Source: a virus
Strand: one strand, 5' to 3'
UHGV virus genome: UHGV-0072940
DNA length: 16,360 nt
Below, piece after piece: positions 6,785 through 6,944 of this stretch (positions are counted from its first letter, which is position 1; each line of letters opens with the position of its first letter). The notes below the pieces were generated by a model, which made no database searches, was not told the DNA's origin, and worked only from the letters and a program-made list of their open reading frames with translations. The translations under genes were made by a program, and so were the position numbers.

Positions 6785-6795
6785 AATAACCAAAG

Positions 6796-6944
6796 TGAAC
6801 TTTGGGGTGTGGTGAATGGTTCATGGACGGGAATATGTCGCACGTAAAGCGGCGAGGCCTGCGGGACTATTGCCGAATTGAAGTAGGCCGAAACAGGTCG
6901 AAATGGGTCTCCCACCTACCACACCACCAAAGTTCATCAGGAGG
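6796..6944 (+). promoter_or_regulatory. N leader: long imperfect inverted repeat ending at the N ribosome-binding site
   Basis: Left arm TGAACTTTGGGGTGTGGTG (6796..6814) pairs with right arm ACCACACCACCAAAGTTCA (6917..6937), about 19 bp with one bulge. The right arm ends 1 nt before AGGAGG (6939..6944). Confidence 0.5.

Follow-up and report, generated by a model that had tools for sequence, protein, structure and literature searches.

The window analysed here, i.e., the whole stretch of 16,360 nucleotides, is that of a 933W-like Stx (Shiga-toxin-type) phage. According to BLAST, the region around gene N is 99.4–99.7% identical to the Stx phages 933W and Stx2 phage 86, and Stx1a phages, HK97, and HK106 likewise match from approximately window base 6707 onward. 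For the Stx1a phages, HK97, and HK106, identity sets in at query base 68, i.e., at the putative start of the pL transcript; this break suggests that the immunity (operator) module and the nutL-N module were joined at about +1. The following features were located:

6659–6674: operator OL2, mapped from the 933W-type annotation
6672–6700, plus strand: pL promoter-like site found by promoter scan (−35 TTGATA, 17-nt spacer, −10 CATTAT), which overlaps the OL operators
6681–6696: operator OL1, mapped from the 933W-type annotation
6708–6949, plus strand: N leader, the 5' untranslated part of the pL transcript (242 nt, with A6708 as its putative start)
6718–6784, plus strand: nutL, annotated at the corresponding bases of 933W and phage 32deltatox
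6770–6784, plus strand: boxB hairpin of nutL (GCGCTGACAAAGCGC)
6796–6814, plus strand: 5' arm of the long stem (TGAACTTTGGGGTGTGGTG), containing the invariant TTTGG base and the GGTGTGGTG stretch (repeat finder, folding, homology to lambda GGCTTTGGGGTGTGTG)
6815–6916, plus strand: stem interior, a 'type A' cassette of 102 nt that differs among relatives (BLAST matches)
6917–6936, plus strand: 3' arm of the long stem (TACCACACC-A-CCAAAGTTCA) with the bulged A6926 (pairing, homology to lambda CACACACCACCAAAGCT)
6939–6944, plus strand: Shine-Dalgarno sequence of N (AGGAGG), separated from the 3' arm by 2 nt
6950–7333, plus strand: gene N for an antitermination protein of 127 aa (ORF list; ATG at 6950; Pfam PF25694 N_peptide, E = 2.1e-15)

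The order is accordingly pL, nutL, 11 nt, a stem of about 20 bp with its 102-nt interior, 2–3 nt, the Shine-Dalgarno sequence, and N, whose annotation is also carried by 933W and other BLAST matches of this region. At the OL region, the repeat finder detected a perfect 11-nt inverted repeat (6661–6671/6683–6693). The lambda pL RNA, whose start is placed at lambda 35582, begins with the very sequence found here from 6708 onward (ATCAGCAGGACGC), and we therefore infer that the transcript begins at A6708. A second copy of boxB with a compensating closing pair (TCGCTGACAAAGCGA) is present at nutR (3863–3877, minus strand), with 0.05 chance matches expected; the closing pair is U-A at nutR and G-C at nutL.

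Two dyads lie between boxA and boxB of nutL, CACC-AGGGC-GGTG (6727–6739) and GATTC-GAATAT-GAATC (6750–6765), which we take to be probable H-19B-type 'reducer' stem-loops. In IMG/VR variants, the stem of the second dyad is kept and its loop changes (AAGCAA, AAACAT, AGTGAT). The nutR site (3863–3909, minus strand) consists of a boxA-like CGCTCTTTT, the spacer dyad GGAC-ATTC-GTCC, and boxB; neither a long inverted repeat nor a GGTGTG motif follows it. Farther away, the plus strand encodes three ORFs at 4990–6453, between cI (4222–4929) and the terminator at 6460–6481. The first belongs to DUF3024, and the other two have no significant Pfam match. Since 933W has stk and its neighbours at this position, the phage carries a different lysogen-expressed cassette downstream of the repressor gene. 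The Rfam family Lambda_thermo, the cIII thermoregulator element, matches at 8931–8989 on the plus strand (88.5 bits, E = 8e-21), which indicates that the lambda cIII translational RNA switch is conserved in this phage.

Between boxB and the Shine-Dalgarno sequence, the 5' arm T6796–G6814 is complementary to the 3' arm U6917–A6936, as seen in the sequence itself and by the repeat finder. The long stem comprises 18 Watson-Crick pairs, one G-U pair, and one bulged A (6926). From its base, it is made up of 10 bp (6796–6805 with 6927–6936), the bulged A6926, eight Watson-Crick pairs, and a terminal G6814-U6917 wobble. The initial annotation had described a long inverted repeat upstream of N, in which a 19-nt arm at 6796–6814 and its near-perfect complement flank about 100 nt of leader. 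This description was borne out, the enclosed segment (6815–6916) being 102 nt long. The 3' arm had been extended to 6937, 1 nt before AGGAGG, whereas it actually ends at 6936 and two bases, U6937 and C6938, intervene.

Folding of the segment 6789–6952 with RNAfold yielded −61.3 kcal/mol (z = −3.67), a stability that none of 200 shuffled sequences equalled, and the long stem is present in the centroid structure. In the full 263-nt leader, its pairs have probabilities of 0.98–1.0 (0.81 for the G-U pair), so that the stem is the dominant structure in the RNAfold check that had been suggested for the leader. A script searching for the longest helix (Watson-Crick pairs, at most one bulge, arms within 260 nt) identified this stem as the longest in the whole 16,360-nt window. 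Its 18 Watson-Crick bp compare with maxima of 10–15 bp in 40 dinucleotide shuffles of the whole window, within which the element occurs as a single copy. Sequence, repeat finder, RNAfold, and shuffle controls confirm that the inverted repeat is a real structure beyond chance. Folding of the full leader also predicts a coaxial extension of the stem, in which G6940 and G6941 of the Shine-Dalgarno sequence pair with C6791 and C6790 (predicted unpaired probabilities of 0.32 and 0.21, respectively). The predicted occlusion of the Shine-Dalgarno sequence is thus partial and concerns its first two G residues only.

A local 6-bp hairpin, CCAAAG (6790–6795)-TGAA-CTTTGG (6800–6805), competes with the base of the stem and is predicted only in co-transcriptional prefixes, up to the point at which the 3' arm has been made. 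A conserved switch at 6790–6805 was considered and rejected: lambda and P22 have comparable pairings, but these also arise in shuffles of the A-rich flank at frequencies of 0.07–0.24, and a hairpin of this kind is absent in the leaders of phi80 and of the loci L190 and L193.

The lambda leader possesses arms of nearly the same sequence (GGCTTTGGGGTGTGTG/CACACACCaCCAAAGCT) at the same place, i.e., between the boxB of nutL and the Shine-Dalgarno sequence of N. In the lambda genome (NC_001416, complement of approximately 35582–35360) it reads GCCCTGAAGAAGGGC AGCATTCAAAGCAGAAG GCTTTGGGGTGTGTG, followed by 90 nt and then by CACACACCACCAAAGCT AACTGAC AGGAG AATCCAG ATG. The arms compare as CTTTGGGGTGTGGTG/CACCACACCaCCAAAG in the window and CTTTGGGGTGTGTG/CACACACCaCCAAAG in lambda. 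In transcript coordinates, they occupy +89 to +107 and +210 to +229 in the window (AUG at +243), and +81 to +96 and +187 to +203 in lambda (AUG at +223). Moreover, phage Louie has the nutL and the N start of lambda, yet carries the interior of the window between the same arms. All sequence-level characteristics of a lambda-type N-leader hairpin are found in the window, namely the position, the arm homology, and a helix of approximately 16–22 bp that is maintained as RNA. We consider it very probable that the stem is a homologue of the lambda N-leader hairpin and a selected RNA helix, and highly probable that it represents the 933W/H-19B/HK97-type copy of the lambda RNase III hairpin. A counterpart of that hairpin had been proposed in the initial annotation as an analogous structure; arm sequence, position, and covariation support it as homologous, not merely analogous. 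The same annotation had called the structure unusually long-range. This does not hold, because the arms of lambda enclose 90 nt compared with 102 nt here, and those of other relatives 40–198 nt.

For the comparative analysis, N leaders were collected from annotated phages (lambda, 434, Sf6, HK542, Louie, phi80, PA2, PhiR12_1, ST2-8624, Oslo, two Salmonella P22-like phages, and P22) and from IMG/VR loci encoding relatives of the N protein of the window, of P22 gene 24, or of phi80 N. In minimum free energy folds, every one of these named phages has a stem of this kind immediately before the start codon, and in the related phage loci examined the element lies in the early-left leader, downstream of a nutL-type region. 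The architecture, which precedes N in four families (lambda, 933W/HK97, P22 gene 24, and phi80), consists of a TTTGG/CCAAA base, one bulged purine, and an upper stem of 7–12 bp. It was formalized as a signature in which T[T/A]TG[G/A] is followed by an upper stem of at least 5 bp with its complementary strand, then by a bulge of one base, which may be missing, and by [C/T]CAAA no more than 75 nt from the ATG. This signature was detected in 98 of 144 distinct N leaders, as opposed to 12 of 2880 dinucleotide shuffles and none of the 144 reverse complements. Counted as loci, it is present in 83/85 of the 933W-type, 55/80 of the P22 gene 24, 4/4 of the lambda-type, and 12/38 of the phi80-type leaders; 19 further P22-type loci were recovered when a 1 × 1 C-A mismatch was allowed in place of the bulge. 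In 31 of 117 P22-type and phi80-type N loci the signature was not detected even with relaxed geometry, and the element is therefore not universal.

The covariation alignment was restricted to the arms and contained 28 distinct arm pairs. These had been pre-selected for at least five paired upper-stem positions, which inflates the percentage of paired cells, though not the diversity of pair types: 94.5% of the cells are paired, compared to 73% in column shuffles and 38–46% when the 3' partner was slid by 1–3 columns. The pre-selection cannot create compensatory-type diversity or the contrast with the shuffled and reverse-complement controls. Changes on both sides were found in 14 of the 20 pairs, and the covariation score of 0.588 (compared with 0.183) was reached by none of 500 shuffles. 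A covariation check among relatives, as had been recommended, thus finds the arms conserved and their changes compensatory. The five pairs of TTTGG/CCAAA are nearly invariant, and a purine is bulged after CC in 27 of the 28 arm pairs. The upper stem varies freely provided that pairing holds. Its forms include GGTGTGGTG/CACCACACC, GGTGTGTG/CACACACC, TGTGTGTG/CACACACA, and GATGCGATG/CATCGCATC, as well as GGTGAATGCAG/CTGTATTCACC, GTTGCAGGTAG/CTATCTGCAAC, ACTGGCG/CGCCAGT, and GTAGCGCG/CGCGTTAC. The G-U pairs found at several positions show that selection acts on the helix in the N-sense RNA rather than on DNA. A 201-nt query (6760–6960) is matched at least in part in 578 of 5426 complete E. coli genomes, and over at least 80% of its length in 338 of them. 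In the GenBank and RefSeq records inspected, the element is unannotated.

In contrast to the arms, the enclosed sequences are exchanged between phages. At least nine unrelated interiors (40–198 nt) are bracketed by the conserved arms: 102 nt in 933W, phi80, PA2, and Louie; 90 nt in lambda and 434; 61 nt in PhiR12_1, Oslo, and the locus L107; 40–43 nt in the sal4 phage and HK542; 198 nt in Sf6 and the locus L017; approximately 80 nt in P22; and 127, 112, and 74 nt in single IMG/VR contigs (the loci behind this comparison include L093, L094, L007, L011, L017, L107, L190, L192, and L193). Each N family, i.e., lambda, 933W, P22 gene 24, and phi80, was found with several interiors, and it is at the top of the stem that shared sequence gives way to unshared sequence. 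In phi80, the PA2-type Stx2a phages, and Louie, BLAST matches only window bases 6800–6932 (90–96% identity), and the flanks differ. Within the 102-nt type, RNAalifold finds the closing stem supported by covariation, and internal helices with one-sided changes only. The arms thus look like the selected part of the element, and the interior like a tolerated, recombinationally swapped filler. The conserved arms seem to supply the short homology for these swaps and to act as a recombination hot spot. This cassette-like behaviour of the interior is the only mildly new residue of the finding.

Several observations were made on individual interiors. In PA2-type Stx2a phages, the type A hairpin follows a phi80-like nutL region (L005, 1501–1950). 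No N-like ORF was found after the hairpin in PA2, where the next annotated gene, encoding a hypothetical protein of 215 aa, is located approximately 300 nt downstream; the PA2 hairpin may be a relic or a differently used leader. 'Hypothetical proteins' of 44 aa have been annotated exactly on the hairpin in Louie (Louie_CDS0041; L006, 1503–1637) and PhiR12_1 (L007, 450–584). These gene calls are very likely spurious, because the interiors are interchangeable and the arms covary as RNA. Finally, the interior of the metagenomic phi80-type leader L193, approximately 110–40 nt upstream of an N-like start at 501, contains AGCTAGTTGGTGAGGTAATGGCTCACCAAGGCGACGA, which presumably resembles the helix 11 region of gamma-proteobacterial 16S rRNA; a search of this interior gave no Rfam match at an E-value of 1 or below.

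In lambda, the N-leader stem is cut by RNase III, and rnc+ cells express several times more N-lacZ than rnc− cells do. The uncut lambda stem, whose base adjoins the ribosome-binding site, inhibits translation. Furthermore, when lambda N is bound together with Nus factors at nutL, it keeps its own translation repressed, except where RNase III has cut nutL away from the coding RNA. The RNase III processing hairpin of the lambda N leader is reportedly the subject of work by Steege et al. in 1987, Kameyama et al. in 1991, and Wilson et al. in 1997 and 2002. The H-19B-type N system is said to differ from that of lambda in its host-factor needs (a finding attributed to Neely and Friedman in 2000), so that N autorepression from nutL may not carry over unchanged. 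For lambda, translational repression of N from nutL and an intervening leader that is 'highly structured' have been described (PMC5725501).

On the lambda model, the stem in the window would form in the pL transcript as soon as the 3' arm has been transcribed, between the boxB of nutL and the ribosome-binding site of N. In the folded RNA, the base of the helix would have boxB, together with any bound complex of N, Nus factors, and polymerase, approximately 11 nt away on one side and the Shine-Dalgarno sequence 2–3 nt away on the other. The intact stem would limit translation of N in two ways, through the position of the helix right against the ribosome-binding site and through the autorepression that N exerts from nutL. 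Cleavage of both strands of the stem by host RNase III would detach nutL and the 5' leader from the N coding RNA, whereupon translation of N would rise. N synthesis could thereby be coupled to the activity of host RNase III, and its rate tied to the levels of this enzyme. Cleavage, repression, and its relief are inferred here from the work on lambda, and it seems likely that RNase III cleaves the stem and that this affects N as it does in lambda. Judged by its sequence, the window has every requirement for the lambda circuit, with an even tighter geometry. The hairpin would set the amount of N right after induction or infection, and in a Shiga-toxin-type phage the level of N feeds into the speed of the lytic programme and eventually into toxin expression.

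Alternatively, the stem might serve as a spacer only, which folds away approximately 140 nt and places nutL beside the N ribosome-binding site, for N autoregulation or for insulation of the ribosome-binding site, and which is not an RNase III substrate in this phage. Such a role would resemble that of the H-19B 'reducer' stem-loops. It would fit the distance of approximately 15 nt that separates boxB and the Shine-Dalgarno sequence across the helix base, as well as the evolutionary dispensability of the interior, seen in the unrelated cassettes that the same arms enclose. That this lineage uses stem-loops as spacers is also shown by the nutL dyads between boxA and boxB. However, the arms are homologous to those of lambda, which are an experimentally established RNase III site, and an uninterrupted helix of approximately 20 bp has the size of a canonical E. 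coli RNase III substrate. In addition, the single bulged purine at a fixed position suggests a recognition more specific than mere folding. We regard a function as spacer without cleavage as unlikely.

If cleavage is assumed, the arms could also constitute a cassette-exchange site from which RNase III releases the interiors as structured RNAs, i.e., as functional payloads such as small RNAs or decoys. The type A interior is 90–96% conserved across phages with differing flanks, and its internal helices lack two-sided covariation; this possibility is quite improbable.

A further explanation is that the arms are conserved mainly as DNA, acting as short homology 'linkers' for leader swaps among lambdoid phages, and that their pairing in RNA is incidental. 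The same arms of 14–20 nt around at least nine unrelated interiors, several of them per N family, and the junctions of shared and unshared sequence at the top of the stem are what such linkers would produce. Yet the arms differ from one another by compensatory changes that preserve their pairing, among them G-U pairs, which are functional in the sense RNA alone, and the signature is missing from all 144 reverse-complement controls. Recombination at the arms is better understood as a consequence of their conservation than as its cause, and a DNA linker is very improbable as the main reason for it.

The 5' arm contains GGTGTGGTG just after boxB, and this stretch, we assume, resembles boxC. One could hence argue that the arm is a single-stranded boxC (GGTGTG), a Nus-factor-related element of nut, and that the downstream complementarity is secondary. 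Nut regions have indeed been described as composed of boxA, boxB, and boxC (PMC2724277). In rrn operons, boxC is the 5' strand of an RNase III duplex, and the antitermination complex is thought to 'deliver' boxC to its partner (PMC8632103), a precedent that favours the duplex reading instead. GGTGTG is, moreover, lost in relatives that keep the helix (GATGCGATG, GTAGCGCG, ACTGGCG, GTTGCAGGTAG), and nutR of the window has boxA and boxB, but no such motif. A single-stranded boxC is thus extremely improbable.

The remaining candidates were rejected: chance by the shuffle and covariation controls; an intrinsic (Rho-independent) terminator by a scan of 6400–7400, which gives only 6460–6481 and 7252–7264, UCAGGAGG being the sequence that follows the 3' arm; a tRNA or tmRNA by ARAGORN, which found nothing inside any hairpin; a miniature inverted-repeat mobile element by the single copy in the window and the strand-specific G-U pairing; and known prophage small RNAs by their location, since the EHEC anti-sRNAs (AgvB, AsxR) and the Pas sRNAs lie close to pR'/Q and outside the N leader. 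In the Rfam scan of the window at gathering thresholds, only Lambda_thermo was returned, and E-value scans of the leader and 11 related loci yielded no family, the sole weak match (TLS-PK2, 13 bits, E = 9.4) being noise.

The reading as an N-leader RNase III hairpin follows a logic that was worked out for lambda decades ago. That a 933W-like phage has a homologous stem is no surprise and contributes little more than an annotation. The comparative set nevertheless provides clean natural mutagenesis data for the requirements of RNase III and of the N autoregulatory loop, and a covariance model of the element would be a useful small addition, given its absence from Rfam.

Three known systems invite comparison. 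Within the same phage lineage, the spacer of the H-19B nut sites reportedly contains 'reducer' stem-loops (Neely and Friedman in 2000), in which, as in the N leader, the pairing of the dyad matters rather than its sequence and flanking elements are brought together. The reducer is, however, short and situated between boxA and boxB, inside nut, whereas the stem in the window is located downstream of boxB, has 20 bp, encloses approximately 100 nt, and abuts the ribosome-binding site of N. The leader-trailer (boxC) helix of the E. coli rrn operons, which flanks 16S rRNA and is its primary RNase III site, shares with the N leader an arrangement in which a nut-like boxB and boxA come first and a GU-rich boxC strand then pairs with its complement far downstream. 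It differs in that it encloses a functional rRNA of 1.5 kb and serves maturation, while the segment enclosed in N leaders is hypervariable, measures 40–198 nt, and has the control of translation of the downstream ORF as its output. This comparison is one of analogy, not of membership, and the N leader may be viewed as a miniature of the rrn design. The lambda N-leader hairpin is the closest: it occupies the same position between the boxB of nutL and the Shine-Dalgarno sequence of N, its arm core is nearly identical (CTTTGGGGTGTG ... CACACCaCCAAAG) and has the same bulged A, and it encloses a similar length (90 nt in lambda, 102 nt in the window). Hybrids also occur in nature, among them Louie and Sf6, in which lambda flanks surround an interior that is likewise present in 933W-type leaders. 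Compared to lambda, the stem of the window is a few pairs longer (20 vs. 16–17 bp), its lower flank is TGAAC/GTTCA instead of GGC/GCT, its interior is unrelated, and its 3' arm is 2–3 nt instead of 7–8 nt away from the Shine-Dalgarno sequence; its nutL and N are of H-19B/933W specificity, with a P22-like boxB. These differences are minor, and the element is of an ordinary, already described kind.
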